A DNA stretch of 64,000 nucleotides, taken from the IMG/VR virus record IMGVR_UViG_3300027708_000016. The stretch is one strand, 5' to 3'. This document shows, in pieces, positions 44,004-63,054 of this stretch. Source of the DNA: a virus. Taxonomy: Duplodnaviria; Caudoviricetes. Position numbers and translations under genes: made by a program. How positions within the stretch are numbered: position 1 is the first letter of the stretch; every line of letters starts with the position of its first letter. The notes under the pieces are model-generated. The model was not told where the DNA came from. It worked only from the letters and a program-made list of their open reading frames with translations, and made no database searches.

Positions 44004-44037
44004 AATTTTAGTTTATATGATTCTTTATGATGAAATG

Positions 44038-44235: not shown

Positions 44236-44239
44236 ACTT

Positions 44240-45151: not shown

Positions 45152-45166
45152 ATTTTTAAAAGTTGA

Positions 45167-45281: not shown

Positions 45282-45287
45282 AATTGT

Positions 45288-45524: not shown

Positions 45525-45558
45525 GATTTATATATAGTAAACGATGTTTTAAATTTTG

Positions 45559-46208: not shown

Positions 46209-46621
46209 ATATTCCAAGTTGTTCTTCCTCCATGATGACCACAAGTCTCACAATTACCTTTGCTTTCCTCATAATCATCCGATTGAAAACATTCCATAAA
46301 ACTTTGAAAAGAACAAGTACCATCCTTAATTCCTTCTTTTAGTTTCAATAAAAGATAATCAAGAAGTTCATCATCTTCTTCAGGTTGCTTGACTCCCTCT
46401 TCTACTTCTCCACTTCTCCATACATCATTGATAGAAAATCCCCAATTATAACAGGACATCTCATCATAAACTATCTTGTATTTTGGTTCATCATTTATCT
46501 CGTTGAATTTCTGTTCAGTTATGATCATACCTTTAAGTCCATTGATCTCAGAAAGCCAAACGGTTCCCTGATCAATTTTTTTAACTTCCCAAAATATGTT
46601 ATCTATTTTTACAGTTCTCAT
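46205..46621 (-). CDS. Hypothetical protein with C-terminal CxxC
   Basis: CETCG; start/stop overlaps. Confidence 0.55.
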   Translation of the reverse strand: MRTVKIDNIFWEVKKIDQGTVWLSEINGLKGMIITEQKFNEINDEPKYKIVYDEMSCYNWGFSINDVWRSGEVEEGVKQPEEDDELLDYLLLKLKEGIKDGTCSFQSFMECFQSDDYEESKGNCETCGHHGGRTTWNI

Positions 46622-46826
46622 AATAATTTTTTTTGTCGAGTTTTTTTCTGATTTTCTCAACTTTTTTTTCTTCAATAATCTTTGGAATATCCTTTAATCC
46701 TTCTTGGATTCCTTCAATAAATCCAGTCAATAACCACCAACAAAAAGTAAAAATAAATATAACAAATCCTAATGCTATTATACTAAGAATAATTGCTGCT
46801 GATATTTTAATTATTTCTAGTATCAT
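46599..46826 (-). CDS. Small membrane protein
   Basis: Long hydrophobic helix. Confidence 0.5.
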   Translation of the reverse strand: MILEIIKISAAIILSIIALGFVIFIFTFCWWLLTGFIEGIQEGLKDIPKIIEEKKVEKIRKKLDKKNYYENCKNR

Positions 46827-47131
46827 ACACTCCAAGTTTTGCCATTGTATCCAAGACCAACCTGACCCCAAAATCCAGAATTTTGAACATCGGGAATAAT
46901 TGAATTTGATTTGTAATCAAATAGATCCTTTTCAATAAACTTAACATTCTCTTGAATTGGAATTACAATGGCAGCAAGATCATCTTCAAAGTCAGCTTTG
47001 ATAATGTTCACACCATTTTTATCATAACCTTCTCTCTTAATCTGATTCATAAAGTAATCAGAAGACTTCTTGCTAATAAAAATAGCATAGGTATTGTTAT
47101 TGTTGAATGTTTCGGATTTTAGTTTTGTCAT
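46823..47131 (-). CDS. Hypothetical protein
   Basis: ORF in operon. Confidence 0.5.
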   Translation of the reverse strand: MTKLKSETFNNNNTYAIFISKKSSDYFMNQIKREGYDKNGVNIIKADFEDDLAAIVIPIQENVKFIEKDLFDYKSNSIIPDVQNSGFWGQVGLGYNGKTWSV

Positions 47132-47135
47132 AATT

Positions 47136-47966
47136 TTAGAATACACCAAACTTTATAAGTTTGTCAATATTTTCTTTTGCCTTCTTATTTCTTTTTTCTT
47201 GTGCCTCAAGATAGAAATTAGGAAGCCCAGTATCAATAGCTGCACAGCTTCCATCTTCATCAATCTCAAGAACCTGATGTAGACCACAATCAATGTTGGC
47301 ATTCAACCCTCCGTTTTCATACCAAGTATTAATTTTACCCATCGTGGGGGTGTGTCCATAAACTTGACGTAATCCTCTAGTAACGTGACCTTCTTGAAAG
47401 TCATCACACCAAAGTATTCCACCAACCTTTTGCACACCACCACGACAACGACCTACAGCACCAATGGTTTCGTTCCATGTACGATTAAGGTAATCATCTG
47501 TAGCCTTTGCAATCTTATCAATGATAACTTCATTACTCATACCTTTAATGGGGTGTTCAAACCAAGTTGGATGAATACCAGCATGGGTAAACCATACGCC
47601 GTTACCAAGATGTGCAAACTTAATTTTATCCCATGCTTGTTGATCCATAACACGATTGATGACATCATCTTTCTTCATATCATAACCAGAACAATTGTAT
47701 ATGTTCTGAATATGACCACTTTCATCCTTGCTATAATTTAAATACGAATAATTGATATCGTGATTCCCCATCAAATGAATACGATTGGGTTTATCAAGCG
47801 ATTCTTTTAGCCAACGAGCAGTCTGAATTGCATCATTGGCGGTATCACCGAAATCATCAAAGTAATCACCAGTAAAAACTACAGTATGAGTCTTATCATA
47901 CAATGATGCAATTTCTTCAGCTTCTACCCAATGATTATGGATATCACCAATAGCTATAATGTTCAT
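47136..47966 (-). CDS. Calcineurin-like metallophosphoesterase
   Basis: IGDIH, TGDYFD, MGNHD, FTHAG, YGHTP. Confidence 0.88.
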   Translation of the reverse strand: MNIIAIGDIHNHWVEAEEIASLYDKTHTVVFTGDYFDDFGDTANDAIQTARWLKESLDKPNRIHLMGNHDINYSYLNYSKDESGHIQNIYNCSGYDMKKDDVINRVMDQQAWDKIKFAHLGNGVWFTHAGIHPTWFEHPIKGMSNEVIIDKIAKATDDYLNRTWNETIGAVGRCRGGVQKVGGILWCDDFQEGHVTRGLRQVYGHTPTMGKINTWYENGGLNANIDCGLHQVLEIDEDGSCAAIDTGLPNFYLEAQEKRNKKAKENIDKLIKFGVF

Positions 47967-48098
47967 CTTTTTATAATAGATGATTTAAAAAAATATGTCA
48001 ACCTTTAATTAAAAATATTGCTAATTTTATTACCCAATACCAAAAAATAAAACAACCAATGACAATAAAAAGATTTGGTGGAATGTATTTCATAAAAA

Positions 48099-49073: not shown

Positions 49074-49146
<73 letters not shown>

Positions 49147-49150
49147 GAAA

Positions 49151-49601
49151 TGGTGGAGGCGAGGGAGAACTGCCCTCCCTGTCCTTAATATTGGTAACTA
49201 TATATTCGATACAAGCTTTGACAAAATTCGTACTTTCGTTGTCTAAAGGTAACTAGGCTTTGCCAACCTATCTATGTTTAGAGACCTACCTGTATGCGTG
49301 ATTAACGACCACATACCACCGCTTGCACTCTTTTACTAGTGTCACAAGACCCACTAAAACCTATTGTTATTCCACTACCCCTAATAGGATCAGGATTGTG
49401 GTGTTTATGCTGCCATGAGGCAAAGCTCATCTTCGTTTCCGAAGAGAGACTCTGCTGCATTTGTCACGAATGACTTGACTGCTTCAACTGCATTGGTTAT
49501 TGCCTTTGCGTTTATTTTTTAATCCGTTTTAAAGTAGCCACAGATCAACTACTGCTTGCATATATAGTTTTCAACGATTAAGTCGAATCTATTACGCCCC
49601 C
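49151..49601 (-). ncRNA. ssrA: tmRNA, 451 nt, tag AKAITNAVEAVKSFVTNAAESLFGNEDELCLMAA*
   Basis: 5' GGGGGCGTAATAGATTCGAC; 3' CGCCTCCACCA; G3:U70; AATAAAC-GCA resume context; tag ORF 49405..49509 ending AA-stop. Confidence 0.93.
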
Positions 49602-49631
49602 AAATTATACTTATCAAAGAACAAAGACTTT

Positions 49632-49708
49632 TGGTACACGAGGAGGGATTTGAACCCCCGCTAGGCAGAATGTAAATCTGCTGCTTTACCAGACTAAGCT
49701 ACTCGTGC
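49632..49708 (-). tRNA. tRNA-Val(TAC)
   Basis: GCAGA-TTTACAT-TCTGC anticodon arm; encoded CCA. Confidence 0.88.
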
Positions 49709-49709
49709 A

Positions 49710-50249
49710 TTAAGTCCACAAATACTTACGAAGCTTCACAAGATCTGCAAGGTATTCAGAATCTCTTTCGTGAATATCTTGTTCGACTTTAGAATACTCT
49801 TGCCAGTTATTATCAATAGATTCCAAATAATTTTGCATTTCTTTTTTACCCGTTTTAACCCATTTATAGATTTCCTGAAGTCTAAGATAATTTTTATAAT
49901 GAGCATTGTAATATTCCCAAAATAAATCAACACTCCCCCATTCATTTTTATTATACTCGTCATCCTTATGGAGAGATTTCATAATCATTTGAATTTGATC
50001 AAGACCTTTTTCCTCCTCAACAAATGATATGATAATAGCGGAAAGAACATTTTCTACGATCCCATCTAGATCTATCCAAGCTTTTGGGATAGCCTTGCGG
50101 ATGGATTTATGTTGCGGATTAAAAGTATAATAAACATACCAATATGCTTTATCTTTAACTCTAAAAATAGACCAATAAACTTCTTCCCACCAATTAAGCT
50201 TGGTAAAAGGAAATTGTATTTTCTTAACCTTTACGTGTTCTATATTCAT
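49710..50249 (-). CDS. Hypothetical protein
   Basis: 179-aa ORF; ends ADLVKLRKYLWT. Confidence 0.65.
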   Translation of the reverse strand: MNIEHVKVKKIQFPFTKLNWWEEVYWSIFRVKDKAYWYVYYTFNPQHKSIRKAIPKAWIDLDGIVENVLSAIIISFVEEEKGLDQIQMIMKSLHKDDEYNKNEWGSVDLFWEYYNAHYKNYLRLQEIYKWVKTGKKEMQNYLESIDNNWQEYSKVEQDIHERDSEYLADLVKLRKYLWT

Positions 50250-50910
50250 TGTTTAGATTTTTTAGTTGTTCAGATAGTTTGTTGATGATCTTGTTTTCCC
50301 TTTCAGAAGTTCCGTTTATTTCAGTGAGATTTTCTGGATCGGCAGAAAGATAAGCTTGAATCTCATCTTCAATGACTTTAGCAGAGTATCCAATACCAAG
50401 CAAGTGTTTTTTGAATTTATTGTAAAGTTTTTCTGGAAGTTGACTTGTAATCTTATTAGCAGCATTTTTATATGATGGATACAAATAATAAAAAGCATGG
50501 GCAACTTCATGATTTATAGTTGTTTTGTTTCCTGTTTGAGCACCTATGAGATAATACTTCGGTGCATTTGTATCACTATTTGTAATCTTATGATCAATTT
50601 CTTGAATCACATCATCGTATTCATTTATATCTTTAAAACTATCATGATAGCCATAACATTTATCAATGATGTGGCTAGGAACATTAAACCCTGCCCAATC
50701 AGAAGGATAGGTAAAGCAATCTTCACCCCTTCTCATAGTATAAAGTCTTTGAAATTCTGTCATTGAAAAATGCTTTCCTCTGATTTCTTTATATGGAGAT
50801 TCATAGAATTCTTGAACTCTGCAAAATGTCATTGCAAGATCATAAGAATTGTCCATAGTTACCAAGAATATATTGTGGTGAATTTCTTGTAGTTTGTATT
50901 TTACTTTCAT
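50224..50910 (-). CDS. Hypothetical protein with HExxH motif
   Basis: FCRVQEFYES, WAGFN, NHEVAHAFYY. Confidence 0.65.
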   Translation of the reverse strand: MKVKYKLQEIHHNIFLVTMDNSYDLAMTFCRVQEFYESPYKEIRGKHFSMTEFQRLYTMRRGEDCFTYPSDWAGFNVPSHIIDKCYGYHDSFKDINEYDDVIQEIDHKITNSDTNAPKYYLIGAQTGNKTTINHEVAHAFYYLYPSYKNAANKITSQLPEKLYNKFKKHLLGIGYSAKVIEDEIQAYLSADPENLTEINGTSERENKIINKLSEQLKNLNNEYRTRKG

Positions 50911-50936
50911 CTTTTATAAGTATAGAAGTAATTATT

Positions 50937-51377
50937 ATGCTTGTCAATCTTAAAGAACTCAGTATTAAATTAGCCGATAAAATTGCGGAGTTTATAGGAT
51001 CTTGGAGATTTATTATAATTCAATCGACCATACTGACGATATGGTTAATCGTAAATATATTAGGATTGTGTCATTTTGATCCTTATCCCTTTATTCTTCT
51101 GAATCTTTTTCTTTCTTTTGAAGCTGCTTATGCCACGCCTTTAATTCTAATGTCATCCACAAGGCAATCAGAAAAAGATAGAGCGCACCTGTTACATGAT
51201 GTTGAGTTAGATCAAAATGCATACAATCTAATGCTTCAGTTACATGAAGTTTTAATTCAATTAAAAGATGATTTAAGGTTAGATGAGAAAGCACTAGAAG
51301 ATCATAGTAAATTAAAAGATGATCATAGTCAACTCAAAAAAGAGTTAGAAGAGATTAAAAAATTACTTCAGAAATAA
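50937..51377 (+). CDS. DUF1003 family membrane protein
   Basis: GSWRFII, FDPYPFILLNLFLS..AAY..PLILMS..RQ..DR. Confidence 0.88.
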   Translation: MLVNLKELSIKLADKIAEFIGSWRFIIIQSTILTIWLIVNILGLCHFDPYPFILLNLFLSFEAAYATPLILMSSTRQSEKDRAHLLHDVELDQNAYNLMLQLHEVLIQLKDDLRLDEKALEDHSKLKDDHSQLKKELEEIKKLLQK

Positions 51378-51379
51378 AA

Positions 51380-51464
51380 TGGTGGGCAGAGAAGGACTCG
51401 AACCTTCGAACTCCAAGGAGAGGAGATTTACAGTCTCCAGCAATTGCCGCTATGCGATCTACCC
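51380..51464 (-). tRNA. tRNA-Tyr(GTA)
   Basis: GGAGA-CTGTAAA-TCTCC, long variable arm, CCA. Confidence 0.95.
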
Positions 51465-51473
51465 ATTAAAAAG

Positions 51474-51544
51474 CTGCCTCGTAAGGACTTGAACCTTAAC
51501 AAAGAGATTCAAAGTCTCTCGTGCTACCATTACACCACAAGGCA
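51474..51544 (-). tRNA. tRNA-Gln(TTG)
   Basis: AGAGA-CTTTGAA-TCTCT, U1:A72, G73. Confidence 0.93.
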
Positions 51545-51550
51545 ATATTT

Positions 51551-52195
51551 TTAAATTATTCTTTTATCATCATCCAAAGGAATTGGTTCATGCCAAATCC
51601 TATTATCTTCAACTTGATATCCTCTTTCCTTTAAATCTTTGATTGTTTTATCTTTATTATCATCCCAATTAAGAAAAAACAAATCTTTTAGTTTATCTTC
51701 AAACCAATTAATTCTTGGTTTGTTTTTATTGAAATGAACAATATGAGTTGGTGTATAATTCCATGACCATTTAATTTCATACCATTGAAACATTACAAAT
51801 CTTTTAAATCTTTCCCAAGGAGTAGAACTTTTATTTTTAATAAAATAAAGACCATCTTCTGTATATTTTTTATATGTTTTAAAATCAAATGGACGATAAC
51901 TACTATATTTTATATTGTTTAAAACAATCCAAACAGATTTAACTCTATTTTTCCAAGTGTATTCCATACTTGGATTAAGGCGGCAATCTTGTTCAATCGT
52001 ATTTCTAAATACTTTAGAAACATCAGCAACAGTTCTGGTCTCGTTATGCTTTGCAAGATATTCGTTTACATCCACATTATCTTCTTTACAGATTTCAGCG
52101 AGGTAATCTTTCACAGTTGGAATTACCATAGTTTCACCTTGTTTACCAGTTTCAACTGGCAAACTTTTAAATGCACTTGATGTAGAATTGCTCAT
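51551..52195 (-). CDS. Hypothetical protein
   Basis: 214-aa ORF. Confidence 0.6.
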   Translation of the reverse strand: MSNSTSSAFKSLPVETGKQGETMVIPTVKDYLAEICKEDNVDVNEYLAKHNETRTVADVSKVFRNTIEQDCRLNPSMEYTWKNRVKSVWIVLNNIKYSSYRPFDFKTYKKYTEDGLYFIKNKSSTPWERFKRFVMFQWYEIKWSWNYTPTHIVHFNKNKPRINWFEDKLKDLFFLNWDDNKDKTIKDLKERGYQVEDNRIWHEPIPLDDDKRII

Positions 52196-52242
52196 ATCTA
52201 TACTTTAGCACAATTACTAAAGAAAGCAATACAAATTTAATT

Positions 52243-52611
52243 TTAAGCGTTATATGCGACTACACTACCACTAGCTAACTTTATTGCACCAAATGAACCA
52301 TTAATGGTAAAAGATGCGGGAAAGGTTGGAACATTAATTGCACTAACAGTAACACCGTTTGTACCAGTTAAACCTGAAATTGTTGTTGCTGCAATTGTTT
52401 GAATTGCAGCAAAATTACCAGTTACTGTATTTGTTGTTGCTATTACTGTAATTCCATTACTACCTAAAGAGTTTACCTTGTATATTGCCTGTGCAAATAA
52501 TGGTCTATTTAAATCATTGTTAACATCAACCCAAGAATAATTTTGAGCCGCATTTGGGTTTGGGATTTGCGTAACACCAGAAACAGTTGGATAGTATGTA
52601 GAATAATTCAT
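52243..52611 (-). CDS. Putative virion surface beta-sandwich protein
   Basis: Thr/Val-rich beta pattern ending GSFGAIKLASGSVVAY; TAAATA upstream. Confidence 0.5.
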   Translation of the reverse strand: MNYSTYYPTVSGVTQIPNPNAAQNYSWVDVNNDLNRPLFAQAIYKVNSLGSNGITVIATTNTVTGNFAAIQTIAATTISGLTGTNGVTVSAINVPTFPASFTINGSFGAIKLASGSVVAYNA

Positions 52612-52629
52612 ATATAATATTTACTATAT

Positions 52630-53352
52630 TTAGGCTTTTTTGTTTTTATTTAACCACTGAGTAGTTAAGAATTGACCAGTTGGGGTTGTTTTATTTGTTA
52701 AAGGTGTACTTAACTTTGGTTGTCTTGTTGCCTTATCTGTTCCCATAACCTGATGCCAGTTACGATCCTTAAACATATACTGTTTTACGGGTTTAGTGTT
52801 TGTTGAATATGTTGCATTGTTTGGTATACCACCATTCATTTTTTCTAATGTTGAAGCAGCAGCTTCATCTGAAGGTGCGTACTCTTCTTTTTCCTCTGTA
52901 CTTGGTTCAGTATCCGTTGTTAATGGTGTAGTTTCCTTTGGTACTTCGGATGTGGGAGGCTTTGTAATTGGTTCTGGTGCCTCTGTTTCTGTTGGTTCAA
53001 TACCTACCTTTGTGGCAATAAAATCACCAAGCGACTTTGTTAAAGTAGCGGTATCTTCATCTGTTGCTTTATAATCTTTTCCAAGAACGCCCAATGATAC
53101 AAGATCGTTTAATGCATTTTTAACTATTGATTTGATAATATTTTCCCTTTTACCTTGTTTATAAACATCTGATGCACTTATTTCATTACCCTTGCCACCA
53201 CTAAGAGCACTATTTAATCCCTTTCCGTATTGTTTTGATGCATCATATGCTGCTTTTACTCTTGCACCAGTTTGACGAAAAATCCCTTCTTCAAGTGGTT
53301 TATTGTAAACTTGTGAATATGCTTCTGATATAGATGTAAACTTTTCGCTCAT
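52630..53352 (-). CDS. Hypothetical protein, putative internal head protein
   Basis: FTSISEAYSQVYNKPLEE leader; Pro/Thr/Glu linker; TAAGTA upstream. Confidence 0.6.
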   Translation of the reverse strand: MSEKFTSISEAYSQVYNKPLEEGIFRQTGARVKAAYDASKQYGKGLNSALSGGKGNEISASDVYKQGKRENIIKSIVKNALNDLVSLGVLGKDYKATDEDTATLTKSLGDFIATKVGIEPTETEAPEPITKPPTSEVPKETTPLTTDTEPSTEEKEEYAPSDEAAASTLEKMNGGIPNNATYSTNTKPVKQYMFKDRNWHQVMGTDKATRQPKLSTPLTNKTTPTGQFLTTQWLNKNKKA

Positions 53353-53395
53353 ATAGAATATACTTATTCAGTATATTAACATTTTCAAAGTAAAA

Positions 53396-53426
53396 TGGCT
53401 GTCGAGGTAGGATTCGAACCTACAAC
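53396..53426 (-). pseudogene. Orphan tRNA 3' fragment (T-arm + acceptor 3' strand + CCA)
   Basis: GTT-GTAGG-TTCGAAT-CCTAC-CTCGACA-G-CCA with no 5' half nearby. Confidence 0.8.
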
Positions 53427-53471
53427 AAAAAAATATTTTATTTTATGTATTATTTTCGAGTAAATATTATT

Positions 53472-53987
53472 ATGAAAAAATGTTTAACTTGTCAAAAAAC
53501 TCTCATAGGAAAATATAAAAAGAAATTCTGTAACGCTTCATGTGCTGCAAAGACAAATAATAAAATACCTAAAAGAAAAAAAGAAGGTGATTTAAAATTT
53601 TGTTTAAATTGTAATAAAGAATTTTATATAAGTCCTAGCAAAGGTAAAGGAAAATATTGTAGCATTAATTGTATGCATGAACATTATAATAAAGAATTTG
53701 ATAATGAAATAGAAAATCTTTTTAATTTAGGTAAACTAAAATATAGAGATAAAATAAAAAGAATTCTTTTAAAAAAAAACGGACATAAATGTTTATCGTG
53801 TGGATTAACTGAATGGAATAATCAACCAATACCTTTATGGGTTGATCATATTGATGGATGTGCAAATAATAATAATCCAGAAAATCTAAGACTTGTTTGT
53901 TTAAATTGTGATGCTCTATCTAAAACTTTTGGTGGTAAAAATAGAGGCAACGGAAGAAGATCTTTAGGACTTAGACCTTGGGATTAA
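53472..53987 (+). CDS. HNH homing endonuclease with zinc-ribbon repeats
   Basis: CLTC/FCNASC, CLSCG, LWVDHIDG..NN..ENLRLVCLNC. Confidence 0.9.
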   Translation: MKKCLTCQKTLIGKYKKKFCNASCAAKTNNKIPKRKKEGDLKFCLNCNKEFYISPSKGKGKYCSINCMHEHYNKEFDNEIENLFNLGKLKYRDKIKRILLKKNGHKCLSCGLTEWNNQPIPLWVDHIDGCANNNNPENLRLVCLNCDALSKTFGGKNRGNGRRSLGLRPWD

Positions 53988-53992
53988 AAAAG

Positions 53993-54066
53993 CTCCACTG
54001 GCTAGAGTCGAACTAGCATGATGAACAAATTAACAGTTTGCTGGCTTACCATTAGCCCACAGTGGA
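53993..54066 (-). tRNA. tRNA-Asn(GTT)
   Basis: TCCACTG...CAGTGGAG; GCAAA-CTGTTAA-TTTGT. Confidence 0.92.
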
Positions 54067-54073
54067 ATAAAAT

Positions 54074-54148
54074 TGGTCGAGCACCCCAGTTACGCTCCGG
54101 GTATATCAAAGTCCCAAACTTTGCGGATTACTATCTTCCTCGTGCTCG
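54074..54148 (-). tRNA. tRNA-Pro(TGG), non-canonical T-loop
   Basis: CAAAG-TTTGGGA-CTTTG; T-loop AGCGTAA; CCA. Confidence 0.85.
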
Positions 54149-54163
54149 TACATATTAATTATC

Positions 54164-54430
54164 TCAACCGCCAGCTATTGCTGGAACTATTGAAATTACA
54201 TCCTCATCTTTAATCTCCTGTGTATCTAAAAATCTCATATCCTCATCGTTTACAAAAATATTAATGAATCTACGAACCTCATTATTTTCGTCGTAGATTC
54301 TTTCCTTTAGATCTGGATATGACAAGCAAAGAAGTACCAAACATTCATCAAGAGTTTTTCCGAAACTTTTGATCTCTTCACTTCCACCTACTAATTTTCT
54401 CAAAGGTGTTGGGATTCGTATAATTGCCAT
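54164..54430 (-). CDS. Ubiquitin-like MoaD/ThiS/CysO-family protein
   Basis: IPTPLRKL.GG, RRFINIFVNDED, C-terminal IVPAIAGG. Confidence 0.92.
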   Translation of the reverse strand: MAIIRIPTPLRKLVGGSEEIKSFGKTLDECLVLLCLSYPDLKERIYDENNEVRRFINIFVNDEDMRFLDTQEIKDEDVISIVPAIAGG

Positions 54431-54481
54431 TTATATATCTTATGGAAAACTTAAAATTAATCAAGTAAAAAATAAAAAAAT

Positions 54482-54565
54482 CGGGTGACTGAGGTATCGA
54501 TCCCCATGCCTTTCAGCACCGCTAGTTTTCAAGACTAGGTTTAACGCCAGTTAAATTAATCACCC
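54482..54565 (-). tRNA. tRNA-Ser(TGA)
   Basis: CTAGT-CTTGAAA-ACTAG, long variable arm, G73. Confidence 0.88.
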
Positions 54566-54572
54566 TAAAAAA

Positions 54573-54650
54573 TGGAGCGTCAGACAGGATTTGCACCTGT
54601 GGCTTTAGAGTTTTGCAGACTCTTCCTTTGGGCTTCTCAGGCACTGACGC
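54573..54650 (-). tRNA. tRNA-Cys(GCA)
   Basis: AGAGT-CTGCAAA-ACTCT, U73, CCA. Confidence 0.9.
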
Positions 54651-54659
54651 ATTAAAATT

Positions 54660-54748
54660 TGGAAGGAGCGGTGGGATTCAAACCCACGGAACCTTTTGGG
54701 TTCTTCCGATTAGTAATCGGATACTTTAAATCACTCAGTCACGCTCCC
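54660..54748 (-). tRNA. tRNA-Ser(ACT)
   Basis: TCCGA-TTACTAA-TCGGA, long variable arm GAACC/GGTTC, CCA. Confidence 0.85.
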
Positions 54749-55041: not shown

Positions 55042-55644
55042 TTAATTTACAATATTATCAGCAAATGCTAATTCACCTAAAAAAGTTACTGAAATATTAT
55101 AAGAATTGTTTAGTATAAGACTTTGATCAGGATAAAGAATCGTATTATCTGCTGGTGTAGCATAATCACCCTCTACAACTCCATTAGATATATAAATGTA
55201 TGGAATTGATCCATCACCATATGGTATGGAAAGAGCATCTGAATAATCAGAAAATCCAGTAGAATTTTTTACAATTTCTCCAAGAGTTACATGGGGTCTT
55301 ATGCTTATAGAAATAGTCAGTCCTTGCTGACTAATTGGAATATTTGAAACCGTTATAATTTTATTTGAATAAGATACTATATCGAATATAGAACCATCGG
55401 ATAATTCCACATAATAAGGTTGGGATATATCCATTGTAATTTGACTATTGATAGTAATGGTAGAACCATTAACTAATCCATTGCCAATGTATATCGGTTG
55501 GTTTATAAAGGGAGAATTAATAAAATTAACGCCACCTTCCATATGAATAGTATTATAACCAAGTATTGGTGTATATGCAGTTGATGTTTGAGCATTAGCA
55601 TTTAAAACTAACAATAACAATACTAAAAAATATTTCATTCTCAT
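55042..55644 (-). CDS. Secreted beta-rich protein resembling verrucomicrobial TIGR02597-type surface proteins
   Basis: Signal peptide; AYTPILGYNTI...SPFINQP; YYVEL; IRPHVTLGEI; ILYPDQSLI. Confidence 0.5.
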   Translation of the reverse strand: MRMKYFLVLLLLVLNANAQTSTAYTPILGYNTIHMEGGVNFINSPFINQPIYIGNGLVNGSTITINSQITMDISQPYYVELSDGSIFDIVSYSNKIITVSNIPISQQGLTISISIRPHVTLGEIVKNSTGFSDYSDALSIPYGDGSIPYIYISNGVVEGDYATPADNTILYPDQSLILNNSYNISVTFLGELAFADNIVN

Positions 55645-55694
55645 TAGACAATATTAACACTATTAATGCTCATTAAATTACTAAATATTAAAGA

Positions 55695-56627
55695 GTGAAA
55701 GATAAAGATACAAATTTAATAGCCGAAGCATATTCAAAAATTGAGGTTATTTCTGAACAAAGAGATTCTCAATTTTGGTATAAGTGGCTTGAAAATTATA
55801 GAAATCCTAGTGGATATAATGATTATAAACATTACACTAAAAATGCTGATAACAGCATTAAAATTAATGGTTCTGTTGATTTAAGTGAAATGGGAATCAC
55901 TTCTTTATCGGAAATACCTTTTAAAATTAAAGAAGTTAACGGTAACTTTATAGTAAGAGGTAACAATTTAACTTCTTTGGAAGGTTGCCCAGAAATAGTT
56001 ACTTTTAGATTTGATTGTTCTGAAAACAATTTGAGCAGTTTAGAGGGTTCACCGAAATTTGTAATTGAGCAACAATATACTTCTTTTAATGAATATAATT
56101 GTAGCAAAAATATAAATTTAACATCATTGAAAGGAATGCCTTCTTCTGTAGGGGGTGAAATAAATGCTGATAAGTGTAATCTATTATCTTTAGAAGGAAT
56201 GCCCGATTATTGTGGGTGTTTAAAAATTAATAGTAATAGACATTTACAATCATTAGTAGGCGCACCTCAAAAAGTAAAATTATATATTGATTGTTCAGAG
56301 TGTGATCTTATAAATTTAATAGGGTGTCCACAGGAAGTTAGAATTATATTTTGTTCTCTTAATAAAAATTTAATATCATTAGAAGGTGCGCCCAAAAAAC
56401 TAAAATCAATATCAAAAGACGAAACTCAATTTCATTGTTTTGGCTGTGATAAGTTAAAATCTTTAGAATTCTTACCAGAAGCAGACAAGTATAACTTAGG
56501 CTTTGAATTGGAAAAACAATTAGAAGAAATAAAAAAACAAAGAAAAATTGATAAAATGGCTGGTGAAATATCAGATGATCCAAATGATGTATTTGTTAAA
56601 ACATTTAAAGATTTCAGTAAGTTTTAA
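55695..56627 (+). CDS. LRR-like repeat protein (LxSLEGxP repeats)
   Basis: LTSLEGCP, LSSLEGSP, LTSLKGMP, LLSLEGMP, LQSLVGAP, LISLEGAP; leader NLIAEAYSKI. Confidence 0.8.
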   Translation: MKDKDTNLIAEAYSKIEVISEQRDSQFWYKWLENYRNPSGYNDYKHYTKNADNSIKINGSVDLSEMGITSLSEIPFKIKEVNGNFIVRGNNLTSLEGCPEIVTFRFDCSENNLSSLEGSPKFVIEQQYTSFNEYNCSKNINLTSLKGMPSSVGGEINADKCNLLSLEGMPDYCGCLKINSNRHLQSLVGAPQKVKLYIDCSECDLINLIGCPQEVRIIFCSLNKNLISLEGAPKKLKSISKDETQFHCFGCDKLKSLEFLPEADKYNLGFELEKQLEEIKKQRKIDKMAGEISDDPNDVFVKTFKDFSKF

Positions 56628-56643
56628 GGTATAAGTATAAAAT

Positions 56644-57420
56644 ATGGCAAGAGACCCAAAAGATATTTTAAAAAGTTACAAATATAAAGTCGATAAAGAT
56701 GGTATTATTATCTATGGTGACTTTATGTTTAATGGAAACGGTTGGGGTGGAACTTTGCCTTTTAAAATTAAAGCTGTTCAAGAAACCGATAACGAATATG
56801 GTAATTTAAGATTGGTTTATGCGAGTAATTTCACAAATTGCCCCAAAGAAATTGATGGCGATTTGTTACTCGATCAATGTGTAATAAAAAGCTTTAAAGG
56901 TTGTCCTGTGCCTAAAATGGATTATGGTATTGGTACTAATTCACATTTGGATAATTTTATTGGTATGCCAACCAAAATAAGTGGATCTATATTTGCGTAT
57001 CACACAACAATAACGTCTCTTCAGGGTTCACCAAAAGAAGTTGGTGGATCGTTTTTAGTTGGAAATACTAAGATTACTAGCTTGGTTGGGGGACCAGAAA
57101 TGGTAGGATTTTCGGGAATTGAAAACAACCCTAAAGGTGACGGAATTATCTATGACATATCAAATTGTCATGGTTTAACTTCATTTGAAGGAGCACCAAA
57201 ACAAATTAATGGTACTTTCTGTTTTGACAATTGTAAAGGTATTAAGTCATTAGCTGGAATACCAGAAGCAAAAAATTATAGTTACAAGAATACAAACTTT
57301 ACAGAAGAAGACTTCAAACAATTTACAGAAGTTGAAAAATCAGCAAAAGAACTTGCAAGTTCTGGTACAGAAAATGCAGAAGCGTTTGCTGACGTATTTA
57401 GAGACTTTAATAACTTCTAA
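56644..57420 (+). CDS. LRR-like repeat protein (paralog)
   Basis: IKSFKGCP, ITSLQGSP, ITSLVGGP, LTSFEGAP, IKSLAGIP; C-terminal DVFRDFNNF similar to paralog. Confidence 0.8.
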   Translation: MARDPKDILKSYKYKVDKDGIIIYGDFMFNGNGWGGTLPFKIKAVQETDNEYGNLRLVYASNFTNCPKEIDGDLLLDQCVIKSFKGCPVPKMDYGIGTNSHLDNFIGMPTKISGSIFAYHTTITSLQGSPKEVGGSFLVGNTKITSLVGGPEMVGFSGIENNPKGDGIIYDISNCHGLTSFEGAPKQINGTFCFDNCKGIKSLAGIPEAKNYSYKNTNFTEEDFKQFTEVEKSAKELASSGTENAEAFADVFRDFNNF

Positions 57421-57421
57421 A

Positions 57422-57883
57422 TTATCTGCACCAAAAATAAAGGTGGTGCATTACGCTCATTGGGGTCTTTGCACCTCTGACGCAACCTAATAAGAAATCT
57501 TCTGTTTCCTGATTTATTGCTTCTTGATTAGCATAATTCTCAATATAACTCTTGAGATTTGCTAAATTTACATCCAAATATTTTCTTGGGCTTGGGTTAT
57601 CAATATCTAAATTGAATTTCTTTTCGATTTGATCAACGAGGTCTCTAACCACAGTTTTGTTTACCTTTGAATGATTTGTCATAGGTATACTTTTAGCTGG
57701 TTCAAATTCCTTCGGTGCTTCGCTGGTAGCGAGAGCATTTTCAAAAATCTGATCAAACATATTATCTTCTTTTATTAATCTTTTATACTTTGTCTTTCTT
57801 AAAAGATTTCTTTCCTTTAAGGTAAGATTCTTACCAAAGTAATAATGTTCTGTTGCTAATTTTTTAATTTCTTTTTCTTTCAT
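57422..57883 (-). CDS. Hypothetical protein
   Basis: Follows MoxR gene in operon; start uncertain (57883 or 57760). Confidence 0.55.
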   Translation of the reverse strand: MKEKEIKKLATEHYYFGKNLTLKERNLLRKTKYKRLIKEDNMFDQIFENALATSEAPKEFEPAKSIPMTNHSKVNKTVVRDLVDQIEKKFNLDIDNPSPRKYLDVNLANLKSYIENYANQEAINQETEDFLLGCVRGAKTPMSVMHHLYFWCR

Positions 57884-57890
57884 AAAATTA

Positions 57891-59597
57891 TTATTTTCTC
57901 TTTGCTGCTTCTGCACTTAACATTGATGATGTTTCCTGCATTTCTTTCATGAATTTTTGTGCAAAATTTGCCTTCTCGGTTGCATCATAATTTCCAGTTT
58001 GTAGATATTTAAATACCGTCATTAACGTATCTTTATCCAATCTGTTTTTCAATTGAATAAAAATATCTTGTGACCATTCAGGATGTAAATTGTTAAACAC
58101 CTTTGCAATATTTTCAAGGATGTATTGCTCATTTGGTGTAAGAGGACTATTAGGATTTTTATGTAATAATTTTGAAACGTATGCAAACTTACCAGCCAAG
58201 AATTCCGCAATCTTAAACATATCAGCTTGATATTTATCTTCAATTTTTCCACCCGTATCAAGATGACCAACTAATGATTTCATGTCATATGCTCGTAAAA
58301 GCTTTATGAAATTAACAAACTCATCTGCCCATGCTGAACCCAATAACCCAGCAGCCTTATCCCAAATATATCTATAAGGAGGAACTGGTAAAGTTTTACC
58401 TTCCTTTTTAGCCTTTGCGTATATTCGATATGCGTGTTTTAATTGATCTGAAAATTTCTCAATCTGTCTTGGTACTGGTAATGGATCGCCAGTTCGCGAA
58501 GATTTAATTTCACGATCTTCCGTAGGTATAAATATATTTGCCTTCCCTTCTCTACCTTCCTTACTTGGAGCAACCACTTCGTGTTTTATAAATGCTATAA
58601 TTCTTGGATCTACACCTTCATGCACAGCAAAATCACACCATGCTTCGGGATCAGCAACTAAAACACCAGACTCAAATCTTGTTACCAAGGCTAATGGTAT
58701 TGGCTCGTTTCCAAAAGCAGATGCCAAATTAGCAGCAGCCAAAATTGCCCACCCTTCACTGAATTTACCTTTTCCACCTGAACGATCTAAAACTACTTTA
58801 AATAAAGCTTTTAATGTTTGTTTATCACCTTGATTTAATTCGTCCAAAAAGAGAATACCATCCGAGCCTGGTCTTGTCATTAACCAAATCCATAAATCTT
58901 GATTGTAACTAACAGGTGCTTCAACGTCTTCGTTTTCACCTACTACTTGTTCAAGAGTTTTAAAGGGAATACCCTTGATATCAGAAGGTTCAAGTTCATT
59001 TGCTCTTACATCAACTAAAGCAAAATAATTTTGAGGATTTCTTAAACAATCCATGATTTCCTCTGGTTCTGCCTTTAAGAAATTAATATATTTTCTTTGC
59101 TTTCCCGTTCTTTGTTTTGTTTTTGGATCAATCGATTCACTTCCACCAACAAAAGAAGTCGATGCAAGATCTTTTGCAATACTTGCAACCATTGTACTTT
59201 TACCGATACCAGAACCACCGTAAATTAAAAGAGGTTGTTTTGTTACATAAGAATTTCTTATATACATGTCTATAGTTTTATAACTATATTGTGGTAATTC
59301 TGTATCTGCATAACTTTTTACCATCTCTTCGCCAGCCGTACCGTCACCTAAATCAAGATTATCTAAATCTGCTTCCAAGTCAGGTTCTTCAACTGGTAAA
59401 ACTAAATTCTCATGATCTTCTGCTGAAGCTGTTGATTTGGTTGGTGGTTTTGATAATTTTGCAACAGATCCTTTGATTTTATCAAACCCACCAACTTCTG
59501 ATGAATTATCCTTGAATTTTGCAGCGGACTCATCGGCTTCATTAAGATAAACAGCACCATAAGCTTCCATCAGTTTAAATAAATCTCTATTGTTCAT
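57891..59597 (-). CDS. MoxR-type AAA+ ATPase
   Basis: YGGSGIGKS, GILFLDELNQ, ILAAAN, ALVTRF, PVPRQ. Confidence 0.88.
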   Translation of the reverse strand: MNNRDLFKLMEAYGAVYLNEADESAAKFKDNSSEVGGFDKIKGSVAKLSKPPTKSTASAEDHENLVLPVEEPDLEADLDNLDLGDGTAGEEMVKSYADTELPQYSYKTIDMYIRNSYVTKQPLLIYGGSGIGKSTMVASIAKDLASTSFVGGSESIDPKTKQRTGKQRKYINFLKAEPEEIMDCLRNPQNYFALVDVRANELEPSDIKGIPFKTLEQVVGENEDVEAPVSYNQDLWIWLMTRPGSDGILFLDELNQGDKQTLKALFKVVLDRSGGKGKFSEGWAILAAANLASAFGNEPIPLALVTRFESGVLVADPEAWCDFAVHEGVDPRIIAFIKHEVVAPSKEGREGKANIFIPTEDREIKSSRTGDPLPVPRQIEKFSDQLKHAYRIYAKAKKEGKTLPVPPYRYIWDKAAGLLGSAWADEFVNFIKLLRAYDMKSLVGHLDTGGKIEDKYQADMFKIAEFLAGKFAYVSKLLHKNPNSPLTPNEQYILENIAKVFNNLHPEWSQDIFIQLKNRLDKDTLMTVFKYLQTGNYDATEKANFAQKFMKEMQETSSMLSAEAAKRK

Positions 59598-59631
59598 GTT
59601 TTAATTATAAATTACTTATCTCTATACAAGG

Positions 59632-60576
59632 TTAATATGTGTATTTTATATCAACTTTATAAATGAAATTTGTGTATCTTCCCTTTAAATATTCGTCTGT
59701 TGAGTTTCCATGTAGTAATACTACAGTTTGACCTTTAATTTTTGGTTTTATTAAAGTTCCCATTCCTTCTTCAATTCGTCCATCAGTAAAAATTAAAAGG
59801 TTGTCAACATTTACTTTTTCCAATTGTTTTATATCTTGATTTACCCACATAGAAACAGGGTTAATTCTCGTACCACCTTCAGCAATTGTAACGTTTTCAA
59901 GCTCTTCTTTAATTTGCTCAAAAGATTTTTCTGGTATTTTTAAATGAGTAAATTTATAAACTTTTTCAGTAAAATAAATTATGTATATATCAAGATGTTT
60001 AAATTTTTTAATTATTGTTAAAATCTGATTTCTTATTGTTCTTAAAACTGGTTCTCTCATACTACCAGAAGTATCGATTGCAATTACACCAGTAAATTTA
60101 TTTTCTTCTTTAGATTTGCCAGGTAAAAAGACACCAACCGCACCACTTTTTTTATGTCTTTTTGTAAAGTCATATCTTGTGTTAGCAGAATTTGTTAAAA
60201 ATCTTTGTAAAATAGTTTCCCAATTCATACCAGCTTGCTGCCAATTAAGATCTTTATCTAAAGCTTGTTCTTCGCCGTGTCCCGATCCACCTTCACCTTT
60301 TGCTTGTTCTGCGGTTTCTTTTCTATTTTTTCTAACTTTATTTTTTTGTTCTTCGGTTTTTGGGTTGGTTCTATATACAGGATTTTTTGTGTATTTTGAA
60401 ACGTCAATTATATCATGTTGATGATTACTATTATCGTAAATATGAGTATCACCTTGAACGTGTGATCTTTCAATTTTGGGTTTAGTTCCTTCAAATTTAG
60501 CAGTACCTTGACCAGTTCCTTCGCTAACTGGTTTTAGTTTTCTTACTTTATCTCTGTTTAAAATAATATCACTCAT
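59632..60576 (-). CDS. vWA domain protein (DUF2201 C-terminal-like)
   Basis: [48 protein letters not shown]. Confidence 0.88.
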
Positions 60577-61771
60577 ATTTTTTTCTATCGTTTTTTGATA
60601 ATGGTTTAATTTTATAATGACCATCTGGGGTAATTTCAGTTACTTCTCCAAAATTACCTCTGTCATCTTCGATTACATCACCTACACTAATATCATTGCC
60701 TTGGTCTTTTGTACCCGTACCAGTTGATGAACTAGTACCCGTACCAGTTGATGTTCCTCTTCCAGTTTGCGTAGATGTACCAGTACCTGTTTGGGTTCCT
60801 GTACCAGTTCCTGTTTGAGTTCCTGTACCTGTCTGAGTACCAGTTCCTGTTTGAGTTCCTGTACCTGTCTGAGTACCAGTTCCTGTCTGAGTACCAGTAC
60901 CTGACTGAGTACCAGTTCCTGTTTGGGTTCCTGTACCAGTTCCTGTTTGAGTTCCTGTACTTGTTTGAGTTCCTGTACCTGTTTGAGTTCCTGTACCTGT
61001 CTGAGTACCAGTTCCTGTTTGGGTTCCTGTACCAGTTCCTGTTTGAGTTCCTGTACCTGTTTGAGTTCCTGTACCTGTCTGAGTACCAGTTCCTGTTTGA
61101 GTTCCTGTACCTGTCTGAGTACCAGTTCCTGTTTGGGTTCCTGTACCAGTTCCTGTACCCTTACTTTTATTTTTTTCTAAAATGTCATATATTTGTTCTG
61201 CTTTTAAATCAGTAATATCAACATTATTAAGTTCCCATCTCGGAGGTGTCATCCAATCTTTTCCGTTAGCTATCCATCTTCCGTTTTTAAGAACAGGAAG
61301 TAAAGCCATACGATTTAATTTCAACCCAAAAATTTCCAAATATTTGTTAATAACATAATCAGTAGAAACATTCCAGAGAAGATTGTCTCTACCAAGTTGT
61401 CTATCAAAAGATGATAATAAATAATGATGAACCTCGTGAGCTAAAGTTGCGGTAAACTCATCTTCTGTTATTTCATAAGCAGCAAATTTTGGATTTATGT
61501 AAAGATTTTCATAACCATCAACTGCCATTGTATCAACAGACCAATCAAGATTAATAGCTAATTTTTTAAGGTGAATTCCTATTGTTTTAAAAAATCTCGA
61601 CAAAAACATTTTAGAATTTAAAAGTCTTTTATCAATTATTTCAAAAGCTTCTCTTTCGTTAAATTCATCTCCTCCTTTAGAGGTGGGTGTGGGTTCAGGT
61701 GCTGGCGAATTTTCGTTATATATTGAAATATAACGCTCCATAATAGATTGAAGATCTTTACTATATGCCAT
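60569..61771 (-). CDS. Putative metallopeptidase (DUF2201 N-terminal-like) with Thr/Gly/Gln repeat and SH3-like tail
   Basis: [30 protein letters not shown]; TGTQTG repeats; [10 protein letters not shown]... Confidence 0.82.
60711..61160 (-). repeat. Coding tandem repeat, 18-bp unit (TGTQTG), about 450 bp
   Basis: gtaccagttcctgtttga-type units with synonymous variants and occasional extra TG dipeptides. Confidence 0.95.
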
Positions 61772-61819
61772 ATGAATAAATACTTATACGATTTTAAATT
61801 ATTTCTACAAAAAAAAATG

Positions 61820-61890
61820 AGGGGGTAGAGGGAATCGAACCCTCTCATTAAGTTTGGAAGACTAACAGGCTACCGTTACATCATACCCCC
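61820..61890 (-). tRNA. tRNA-Gly(TCC)
   Basis: GGGGGTA...TACCCCC-T; loop CTTCCAA; one stem mismatch. Confidence 0.88.
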
Positions 61891-61894
61891 AAGT

Positions 61895-61969
61895 TGGCAT
61901 CGATACGGGGATTTGAACCCCGACTACAGCTGTGAAAGAGCCGTATGCTAACCATTACATTATATCGAC
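61895..61969 (-). tRNA. tRNA-Glu(TTC)
   Basis: CGGCT-CTTTCAC-AGCTG; CCA. Confidence 0.93.
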
Positions 61970-61982
61970 TTATTCATATATC

Positions 61983-62099
61983 TTAGTGATGTTTTCTTAT
62001 AAAGTCAACAATAAAAATAATAAGACTTAAAATAATATATCCTGCAAAAAATAAAATAACCATTACTCCTGTCATAGCTGCTTCTAGTGGATCAAGCAC
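61983..62099 (-). CDS. 38-aa single-TM peptide (not in ORF track)
   Basis: GTG start after TAAGTA; strongly hydrophobic. Confidence 0.4.
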   Translation of the reverse strand: MLDPLEAAMTGVMVILFFAGYIILSLIIFIVDFIRKHH

Positions 62100-62114
62100 A
62101 TATATACTTACAAA

Positions 62115-62134
62115 TGGCAGGAGAGGGAATTGAA
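62115..62134 (-). pseudogene. Possible orphan tRNA 3' fragment
   Basis: TTCAATT-CCCTC-TCCTGCC-A; resembles 3' end of tRNA-Met at 62814; only 20 nt. Confidence 0.4.
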
Positions 62135-62161
62135 AAACGAATTTCAATTGTAAGTATTAAT

Positions 62162-62887
62162 ATGAAAATGTTAATATCAATTGAAGAATTAGAAAATGTT
62201 TCTGTTGTTCCCTGTGAATGTCTTAATTGTAAACGAACATTTGAAGTTGGAAAGGGTGAAATAAAAAGAGCACTTAAAGGAACAAGGAAAGCTGAATATT
62301 GTTCTCATAAATGTAAAAATGAATATTATACTAGAAAACAAAATATAAATTGTAAAAATTGTAATAAATCATTTTTAAAATTACCAAATCAAATAAAAAA
62401 AACAATAAATCATTTTTGTAATCATTCGTGTTCAGCAACATATAATAATAAAAATAAAACACATGGAACAAGAAGGTCAAAATTAGAATCTTGGTTAGAA
62501 GAACAATTAACTATTCTATATCCAAAATTAGAAATACATTATAACAGAAAAGATATCATTAATAGTGAGTTAGATATTTATATACCATCTTTAAAACTTG
62601 CTATTGAACTCAATGGTATATTTCACTATGAACCAATTTATGGAAAAGATAAACTAAAACAGATTACAAATAATGATAATAGAAAGTTTCAAGCTTGTTT
62701 AGAAAGGGAAATAGAACTTTGTATTATAGATGTTTCAAAATTAAGTTATTTTAAACCAGCTAATGCTAAAAAATATTTAGATATTATTTTAGAAATTTTA
62801 AATAAAAAAAAAATGACAGGGGTGGAAATCGAATCCACGACGAATGGTTATGAGCCATTCTGGAGCACCAGCCCCGACCCCCTGTGA
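62162..62887 (+). CDS. Zinc-ribbon / PD-(D/E)xK putative homing endonuclease
   Basis: CLNC, YCSHKC, CKNC, FCNHSC; ELDIYIPSLKLAIELNGIFHY; ATG 62162 after TAAGTA. Confidence 0.82.
   Translation: MKMLISIEELENVSVVPCECLNCKRTFEVGKGEIKRALKGTRKAEYCSHKCKNEYYTRKQNINCKNCNKSFLKLPNQIKKTINHFCNHSCSATYNNKNKTHGTRRSKLESWLEEQLTILYPKLEIHYNRKDIINSELDIYIPSLKLAIELNGIFHYEPIYGKDKLKQITNNDNRKFQACLEREIELCIIDVSKLSYFKPANAKKYLDIILEILNKKKMTGVEIESTTNGYEPFWSTSPDPL
62814..62886 (-). tRNA. tRNA-Met(CAT), initiator-like, atypical
   Basis: GAATGG-CTCATAA-CCATTC; C1.C72 mismatch; unusual D-arm. Confidence 0.7.
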
Positions 62888-62892
62888 TAAAA

Positions 62893-62967
62893 TGGCACGT
62901 TGGGTGGGTAACGCTCCCACATAAGGCAGTTTTGGAGACTGCTGCATTTCTTGTCTGCCACCAACGT
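62893..62967 (-). tRNA. tRNA-Trp(CCA), non-canonical T-loop
   Basis: GCAGT-CTCCAAA-ACTGC; T-loop AGCGTTA; CCA. Confidence 0.87.
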
Positions 62968-62983
62968 ATGTTTAATATTTATC

Positions 62984-63054
62984 AGCCTAATAAAAGAATC
63001 GAACTTTTGTTTGATGATTACAAATCAACCGTTTTACCATTAAACTAATCAGGC
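62984..63054 (-). tRNA. tRNA-Thr(TGT)
   Basis: GCCTGAT...ATTAGGC; loop TTTGTAA. Confidence 0.85.

Follow-up and report, generated by a model that had tools for sequence, protein, structure and literature searches.

A split peptidase–vWA chain and head-targeting-like leaders in the MoxR AAA+ module of a large uncultured freshwater phage

The window analysed here is a 64,000-nt part of the ca. 218-kb genome of an uncultured freshwater phage (31% G+C; Duplodnaviria, Caudoviricetes; IMG/VR record IMGVR_UViG_3300027708_000016), and the locus of interest, at positions 55695–61771, comprises six genes coding for two leucine-rich repeat (LRR) proteins, a small helical protein, a MoxR-like AAA+ ATPase, a von Willebrand factor type A (vWA) protein, and a zinc metallopeptidase. 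What is new here is the splitting of the peptidase–vWA chain, the conserved small partner protein, the N-terminal leader of the ATPase family, and that of the LRR family. The window carries T4-type genes for the sheath, tail tube, baseplate, and large terminase, and the exact LRR1 protein is on record in a contig of 218,343 bp. No close DNA relatives were found among sequenced phages, and a scan of IMG/VR with peptide patterns derived from the ATPase gave no match.

Gene layout and identity of the core module

Two of the genes lie on the plus strand, LRR1 (55695–56627, 310 aa, with a GTG start kept in relatives) and LRR2 (56644–57420, 258 aa). The remaining four lie on the minus strand in the order peptidase chain (60569–61771, 400 aa), vWA chain (59632–60576, 314 aa), ATPase (57891–59597, 568 aa), and small helical protein (57422–57883). 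The two groups converge, with a 1-nt gap between them, and the minus-strand junctions consist of an 8-nt overlap (peptidase/vWA), a 34-nt gap (vWA/ATPase), and a 7-nt gap (ATPase/small protein). The open reading frames (ORFs) are located exactly where a preliminary description of this DNA had put six contiguous convergent genes, and every sequence feature listed in that description is real. The four minus-strand genes form one operon-like module; the order peptidase–vWA, ATPase, small protein is kept in distant relatives (loci L005/L006, L007, L008, L009, and L016), and the vWA gene adjoins the ATPase gene in all the loci examined.

The three core proteins were assigned from their motifs and from Pfam and family matches. 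The peptidase chain consists of a leader, a zincin domain with the HEVHH motif followed by a conserved TDYxxN, a (GTGTQT)n tail, and a mini-domain, and it matches DUF2201_N (PF13203) with 56.4 bits against a cut-off of 23.2. In the vWA chain a low-complexity linker of ancestral origin is followed by a pre-vWA helical region and the vWA domain; it matches VWA_2 (PF13519; 38.2 bits, cut-off 27) and DUF2201 (PF09967; 27.8 bits, cut-off 26.4). Its metal ion-dependent adhesion site (MIDAS) is complete, with DTSGS, GGT, and FTDG aligning with those of homologues in which peptidase and vWA are fused. The ATPase comprises a leader, an acidic extension of ca. 100 aa, the AAA+ core, and a helical C-terminal half, and belongs to phrog_1297 (9e-40), which begins at its residue 103. 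The Walker A motif GGSGIGKS, Walker B LFLDE, the sensor-1 asparagine N290, R307, and R377 are invariant in a 17-sequence alignment of the family. The window ATPase alone scores 18 bits for AAA_5, under the cut-off of 22, while 14 of the 17 family members match AAA_5 and 6 of the 17 match bpMoxR at E ≤ 1e-3. The ATPase-family profile matches midasin (5e-12) and MoxR 2r44 (1.6e-3); single-sequence searches of the PDB, which found nothing, and of NCBIfam were both uninformative. A Foldseek search with the AlphaFold2 (AF2) model of the ATPase gave NorQ in the NorQ–NorD complex as the top match (E = 3e-6, TM 0.44–0.48 by target), with general AAA+ proteins coming close behind in the ranking. Residues 1–107 of the model are of low confidence and are not packed against the core; the N-terminal extension of ca. 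100 aa is probably disordered. Judged by its motifs and family matches, the protein is a very diverged MoxR-like (AAA_5, NorQ/CbbQ-type) AAA+ ATPase. The C-terminal half of the ATPase, the N-terminal region of the vWA chain, the peptidase mini-domain, and the small protein have no match in Pfam.

The locus had been put forward as a candidate new system, a view that does not hold for its core, since in 2021 Iyer et al. described a pair of a MoxR ATPase and a vWA protein with an N-terminal metallopeptidase in T4-like jumbo phages of group 2.2 (PMC7824862). The pairs of phiTE and S-TIM5, recorded as 'MoxR' plus a hypothetical protein, are of the same two PHROGs, 1297 and 1314, as the window proteins; there too the two genes stand side by side in one orientation, and the Walker A/B, HExxH, and MIDAS motifs are intact. 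The pair is annotated 'MoxR' in phiTE, rV5, and S-TIM5, and the record of an N4-like phage calls it 'N4 gp24-like'. In all, 378 phage records contain relatives of the ATPase core, N4-like podoviruses, rV5-like phages, and Bacillus phage G being among them. By family membership the ATPase, vWA protein, and peptidase are thus a known phage module, described in T4-like jumbo phages, Vequintavirinae, S-TIM5, and N4-like phages. The locus nevertheless differs from the known pair in several respects. The peptidase and vWA domains are here on two chains joined by the ATGAGTGA overlap, the peptidase has the (GTGTQT)n tail and the mini-domain, the ATPase has the N-terminal extension and a leader resembling the T4 capsid-targeting sequence (CTS), and a conserved protein of ca. 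150 aa follows the ATPase. The gene order, peptidase–vWA and then ATPase, is the reverse of that in S-TIM5 and phiTE.

The cellular NorQ–NorD and CbbQ–CbbO systems (CGN subfamily) likewise combine a hexameric ATPase of the AAA_5 type with a vWA protein carrying a MIDAS. They differ from the phage module in having no peptidase, leader, or C-terminal helical half and in serving to mature cellular metalloenzymes or Rubisco, and the sequence similarity of their ATPases to that of the window is very low.

Some members of the ATPase family are much longer. Those of ca. 950–1040 aa were considered as peptidase–vWA–ATPase fusions, an idea rejected because they have two Walker A motifs and neither HExxH nor DxSxS. 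Two Walker A motifs are present in each of the members of ca. 950–1220 aa (P0261, P0262, P0264–P0266, P0280, and P0390), which are therefore tandem double ATPases; these proteins also begin with CTS-like leaders, e.g., MKTFNSQIKQLVEE and MKFNEHIKIILE.

The split peptidase–vWA chain and the small partner protein

Distant relatives (31–39% identity; L005/L006, L007, L008, L009, and L016) have a fused peptidase–vWA protein of 476–581 aa. The alignment of phrog_1314 places its positions 22–162 on the window peptidase and 161–390 on the vWA protein, so the normally fused chain is split here. In the window and in two relatives of ca. 80% identity, L003 and L004, the two domains are encoded by two ORFs overlapping by 8 nt. 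This ATGAGTGA stop/start overlap (60569–60576, minus strand), in which the vWA start codon lies within the end of the peptidase gene, is conserved in both relatives and would couple the translation of the two chains. The split and the overlap had been noticed in the preliminary description and are borne out by the comparison. Two further ideas about the split were discarded. Re-fusion of the two chains by programmed frameshifting or slippage was rejected because the A7 run in the window is conserved in neither L003 nor L004, while the overlap is, and no other slippery run is conserved. A split active site, in which the vWA chain would supply the third zinc ligand, was rejected because the conserved TDYxxN that follows HExxH is on the peptidase chain.

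The peptidase was also said to be separated from the vWA protein by a 150-aa tether. Its (GTGTQT)n tail, encoded by an 18-nt tandem repeat (60777–61151, minus strand; Tandem Repeats Finder), is real, and its repeat unit varies between close relatives, being GTGNETGK in L003. The ancestral low-complexity linker, however, sits as a whole on the vWA chain, while the alignment with the fused homologues shows that the tail is a new acquisition of the peptidase chain together with a C-terminal mini-domain of ca. 45 aa (60572–60706, minus strand). The mini-domain is missing from the fused homologues and is present in a second, independent split form, P0247/L015, whose peptidase has a similar mini-domain at its end, with a separate ORF for linker and vWA beginning 7 nt further on. 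Since a near relative of this form, P0246/L016, is fused, the mini-domain goes with the split. The likeliest role of the mini-domain, as far as these alignments can tell, is to replace the lost covalent link, and the repeated occurrence of the split, in both cases together with this small domain at the end, indicates a contact site of the two halves.

The small protein, of 131–161 aa, is encoded directly downstream of the ATPase in every relative (alignment over seven loci, plus L016). It is the product of the third gene of the module in the relatives and of the fourth here, where peptidase and vWA are split. Its AF2 model (pLDDT 73) consists of two helical parts with a disordered stretch between them, and gave no match above noise in Foldseek searches of the PDB and the atlas.

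Upstream boxes and N-terminal leaders

Four of the six genes are preceded by a TAA(A/G)TA box: TAAATAT (55682–55688, plus strand) 7 nt before the LRR1 start, TAAGTAT (56632–56638, plus strand) 6 nt before LRR2, TAAGTA (59613–59618, minus strand) 15 nt before the ATPase, and TAAGTAT (61780–61786, minus strand) 9 nt before the peptidase. The same box is found 5–11 nt upstream of the start codons of terminase, sheath, tube, baseplate, and other genes in the structural region. Of the 69 occurrences of TAA[AG]TAT, 29 have the start of an ORF of at least 50 aa within 25 nt, as compared with 10 ± 2.7 for random positions, and the late-type boxes reported at the four genes are accordingly a real, non-random pattern. 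The block of small genes at 32–48 kb has TATAAT/TATAGAAT-like boxes instead. Promoters of the sigma-70 type are not above expectation in the cassette (34, as against 33 in shuffled sequence). Upstream of the module genes in the loci L008, L005, and L016 stands (T)ATAAATA, which is the consensus of T4 late promoters. Moreover, the L008 module, under TATAAATA boxes, directly follows the genes for an S77 prohead protease, a putative scaffold protein, and gp23 on the same strand. A point on the other side is the ribonucleotide reductase (RNR) small-subunit gene (27076–28047), which one would expect among the early or middle genes and which carries TAAGTA 6 nt ahead of its start codon; the box may thus be shared by genes of other classes. 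Late transcription of the module genes is, on the strength of these motifs, a reasonable and plausible inference.

Both classes of boxes, those of the small-gene block (32000–48000) and those of the structural genes (4900–19200), end 5–11 nt before the start codon with no Shine–Dalgarno sequence between, and because of this spacing they suggest that leaderless or near-leaderless mRNAs are used throughout the phage.

The second common feature is found at the N-termini. The motif [LIVMF]xE[AR]Y occurs eight times in 96 crudely predicted genes, six times within the first 15 residues (P = 4e-6). The genes concerned are the ORFs at 30380, 31946, and 53352, LRR1, the ATPase, and the peptidase, and all six have the upstream box (P = 4e-4). 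The leader of the ATPase (59538–59597, minus strand; found by motif search and family alignment) reads MNNRDLFKLMEAYGAVYLNE and is followed by Ala, that of the peptidase (motif search) is encoded at 61712–61771 on the minus strand, and that of LRR1 is VKDKDTNLIAEAYSKIEVISE; LRR2 has a degenerate leader without the Glu. Candidate cleavage motifs, the slash marking the predicted cut, are LIAE/A and VISE/Q in LRR1, KLME/A and YLNE/A in the ATPase, and SIME/R and IYNE/N in the peptidase.

An exhaustive profile search yielded 571 representatives of the ATPase family at E ≤ 1e-30, and leaders were counted in the 121 diverged long-form representatives among the 150 best matches. Hydrophobic-x-Glu-[Ala/Gly/Ser] is present in the first 35 residues of 68% of these 121, as against 3–12% in other windows of the proteins, with the Glu usually at residues 10–22. 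The head-targeting-like leaders that the preliminary description had pointed out on the ATPase, the peptidase, and one LRR protein are thus non-random and, in the case of the ATPase, a trait of the whole family. In the LRR family the motif is found within the first 30 residues of 42% of 118 proteins, as compared with 3–24% elsewhere, and many of the leaders read like T4's own signal, e.g., MKNLKTYRQLFE/S. The peptidase leader type is kept in the fused homologue P0246 at 38% identity, where it reads MIYDKDMNQIFERYLSV. In L005 a leader of the form MKFxxLYxxhhE is found on about 12 ORFs, including the ATPase (MKFAKLVKE/AA), and six of these adjoin the module. Leader style, as read from these N-termini, follows the phage and not the protein family.

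At L005:4210–8467 (minus strand) there are six consecutive leader genes, whose products begin with MKFNNLYQTILE, MNFKKLYKVLVE, MNFNLLVEE, MNFNFLVE, MITFKDYIGE, and MKFDTLYNLIIE; three of the six have near-identical upstream DNA. The region looks like a locus of the internal-protein type and is divergent from the peptidase–vWA gene.

The leader resembles, as far as the sequence can tell, the signal used by T4 for capsid targeting and prohead-protease cleavage. The N-terminus of T4 IPII and IPIII is MKTYQEFIAE/A. T4 gp21 cleaves after L/I-x-Glu, and for targeting to the head the first 10 residues of IPIII are enough (PMC9026906); the internal proteins of T4 are diverse anti-defence cargo with only the signal in common (PMC3012670). 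IPI, IPII, IPIII, and Alt thus share with the window proteins a short amphipathic N-terminal leader running to L/I-x-Glu and followed by Ala, and in both cases the leader is the only thing that otherwise unrelated proteins have in common. The differences are that the cargo would here be ATP-driven enzymes with chains of 45–64 kDa and not small inhibitors, and that the leader consensus is xKDxxxLxEAYxxV, for which both targeting and cleavage are predictions.

T4 internal-protein genes likewise lie in a region of tRNA and homing-endonuclease genes, and the late-type box upstream of the window genes is a further point of likeness. The window contains twelve tRNA genes in two clusters, within 49074–54748 and 61819–63054, among them one for tRNA-Ser with anticodon ACT (54660–54748; ARAGORN). 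The clusters are interleaved with HNH/homing-endonuclease-like ORFs (53445–53987 and 62087–62887) and leader-bearing genes, a layout that mirrors the T4 succession ipII/ipIII – tRNA cluster/segB – ipI.

Loading of the leader-bearing proteins into the head is plausible on this likeness, and several observations weigh against it. The short-form homologues of S-TIM5 and phiTE have no leader, so that packaging, if it occurs, would be confined to the long-form subfamily; nor is the S-TIM5 pair among the genes labelled as virion proteins in its record. Hydrophobic-x-Glu is a short motif of limited specificity, several leaders have Tyr or Val at P3 in place of Leu/Ile, and the window does not include the genome's prohead protease and capsid genes; in the relative L008 the S77 protease and gp23 genes stand beside the module.

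If the leaders have nothing to do with the head, the module would remain unpackaged and work late in the cytoplasm as a chaperone-protease or anti-defence system, the N-terminal helix being an intrinsic part of the proteins, such as a MIDAS-docking peptide, an autoregulatory plug, or a degron. An intrinsic element would be kept across diverged members of the ATPase family, as the leader is, and MIDAS sites, e.g., those in the vWA/MIDAS domains of integrin and midasin, bind acidic residues. The shortness of the motif and the S-TIM5 labels are also in keeping with it. Nevertheless, we consider it distinctly unlikely: the same leader type is found on unrelated proteins (LRR1, the peptidase, and the ORFs at 30380, 31946, and 53352), its style changes from phage to phage and not from family to family, as seen in L005, and the AF2 model leaves the part of the ATPase that includes the leader off the core.

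LRR proteins and the possible role of the module

LRR1 has about nine and LRR2 about six repeats of 21 residues, those of LRR1 containing Cys; LRR2 is a paralogue of LRR1 (29% identity, E = 1e-17). None of the Pfam LRR models matches the two window proteins significantly, while 8 of the 26 family members contain LRR_4, and the family profile matches internalin-J (1e-15) and the LRR domains of IpaH/SspH1 (E-values from 1e-15 to 1e-4). By this profile and their repeats they are true LRR proteins, as had been suspected. Internalin-J and IpaH/SspH have repeats of 20–22 residues, as the window proteins do, with the Cys position as in InlJ. The window proteins differ from them in being phage-encoded, in having no E3 ligase or anchor domain, and in having a CTS-like leader and a private C-terminal tail (...DVFxxFxDFxxF), which ends ...VFVKTFKDFSKF in LRR1 and ...VFRDFNNF in LRR2. 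Many LRR-family proteins of ca. 510–535 aa (P0141–P0161) end in ...GIGEVKGxIxKDF, which recalls the ...FKDFSKF and ...FRDFNNF tails; the C-terminal tail may therefore be a wider family feature. Divergent to LRR1, at 55042–55644 on the minus strand, lies a gene whose 200-aa product has a clear signal peptide (MRMKYFLVLLLLVLNANAQ) and matches no family; the close relatives have a conserved ORF of 198 aa in this position.

The preliminary description made the LRR proteins parts of the machine, so that they would recognise targets for the ATPase/vWA/peptidase complex. The LRR genes do adjoin the trio in L003 and L004, the six genes being adjacent in three genus-level relatives; LRR1 has the leader type, both LRR genes have the box, and the private tail could be a docking peptide. 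On the other hand, the two genes lie on the opposite strand in a transcription unit of their own. No LRR gene was found beside the trio in the five distant loci L005/L006, L007, L008, L009, and L016. The LRR family (816 hits) is dispersed over many contexts, mostly viral by the atlas, and includes Lak megaphages and a Vibrio phage. In Vibrio phage SRILMA the LRR gene is next to a gene for a DnaB-like helicase, 35 kb from the ATPase match and 80 kb from the DUF2201 gene. Moreover, the leader is also present on other, unrelated ORFs. Since the LRR pair is next to the trio only in this genus and the family is dispersed, a six-gene machine is not supported, and we hold it to be very improbable: adjacency within one genus and on opposite strands is weak evidence for a shared machine, and the shared leader argues for a shared destination and not for a shared complex. 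The expected co-occurrence of LRR genes with the trio does not extend beyond close relatives.

The best explanation that we can offer for the whole locus, to be taken as tentative and with a chance somewhat short of even, is a split MoxR/vWA/zincin module that is expressed late, loaded into the head, ejected, and active on host proteins. NorQ–NorD, CbbQ–CbbO, and midasin serve as models for a mechanism in which a MIDAS grips and an ATPase pulls. By analogy with NorQ–NorD, whose complex is solved, and other MoxR–vWA pairs, the ATPase hexamer would use the vWA protein as an adaptor, whose MIDAS would seize an acidic residue of the target for the ATPase ring to pull and remodel, and the zincin, normally fused to the adaptor, would cut it. 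The split peptidase would stay attached through its new C-terminal mini-domain on the flexible GT-rich tether. With the module transcribed late, as the motifs suggest, the ATPase and the peptidase would carry a propeptide like the capsid-targeting ones of T4, with an amphipathic stretch running to hydrophobic-x-Glu/Ala, a putative site for a gp21-type protease; being so equipped, they would load into the prohead core and be trimmed there. The least certain steps come last: the two proteins may leave the head with the DNA, like T4 internal proteins, and, once inside the next host cell, act on its proteins by remodelling or degradation, in anti-defence or takeover. LRR1 would be a separate cargo of the same route and not a subunit.

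The MoxR–vWA–peptidase pair is among the more widespread phage gene sets of no established function. One genetic screen, from 2026, connects the ATPase of Vequintavirinae with the evasion of a predicted host defence system: the MoxR ATPase of Bas54 is reported as specifically required to overcome the predicted system DS-28 (PMC13716836). Action after ejection is favoured here because of this result, because the signal-bearing cargo of T4 is anti-defence, and because the module is accessory and fast-changing. Several points count against it: the Bas54 ATPase is leaderless and only distantly related (identity to Vequintavirinae ATPases is about 25%), no requirement was reported for its vWA partner, and a hexameric AAA+ enzyme would have to work after passage through the tail.

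The same leaders, and the gene order of L008, also fit a role in the head itself, which is nearly as likely as action after ejection. The module would be loaded into the prohead by its leaders and act there as a morphogenetic chaperone-protease that helps to build, clear, or mature the large head, e.g., by pulling out and degrading proteins of the core or scaffold. A role in virion assembly with peptidolytic processing was proposed by Iyer et al. for the group 2.2 jumbo phages, and the MoxR–vWA proteins of Acidianus two-tailed virus, required for tail assembly, were cited as a precedent (PMC7824862). The latter is likewise a virus-encoded MoxR–vWA chaperone tied to virion morphogenesis, likened here by its description; it belongs to an archaeal virus with another virion biology and has neither a peptidase domain nor a T4-type leader. 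The position of the L008 module right after the head genes, the large genome of about 218 kb, and the fact that, among proteins of solved structure, the nearest to the ATPase is NorQ, the partner of the vWA protein NorD, are also in favour of this role. However, the Bas54 MoxR gene is reported as conditionally essential, against the one predicted system DS-28, and not as an assembly gene (PMC13716836), the module is patchy in its distribution, with most loci among metabolic or accessory genes and not head genes, and there are short forms without leaders. Taken as an account of the whole locus, head maturation is possible but unlikely, and a module ejected with the DNA is retained as the preferred explanation.

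It is worth mentioning that L016 (GCA_009918765.1, RGDD01000001.1, 217 kb), deposited as 'MAG: Proteobacteria bacterium', has the same module, leader types, RNR, and ThiS as the window; it is probably the genome of a ca. 217-kb jumbo phage of the same family and not of a bacterium.

The most important result is that a large, uncultured branch of long-form ATPases has a conserved leader of the T4 type, which a large phage LRR family often has too. The leader gives the ATPase set and the LRR proteins a concrete, testable location, the head interior, and provides a simple sequence rule to predict ejected cargo in uncultured T4-like phages. In a broader form, which we also regard as possible but unlikely, T4-like jumbo phages of lakes and seas would load a whole ATP-driven remodelling and cutting machine, made up of the MoxR-type ATPase, the vWA adaptor, the zincin, and the small partner, together with LRR binders by means of the leader and eject them with the DNA as a first-wave anti-defence weapon. 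If true, it would be the first known case of a phage ejecting an AAA+ machine as cargo, and the hydrophobic-x-Glu/Ala leader would be a general readout, from sequence only, of head cargo in uncultured phages.

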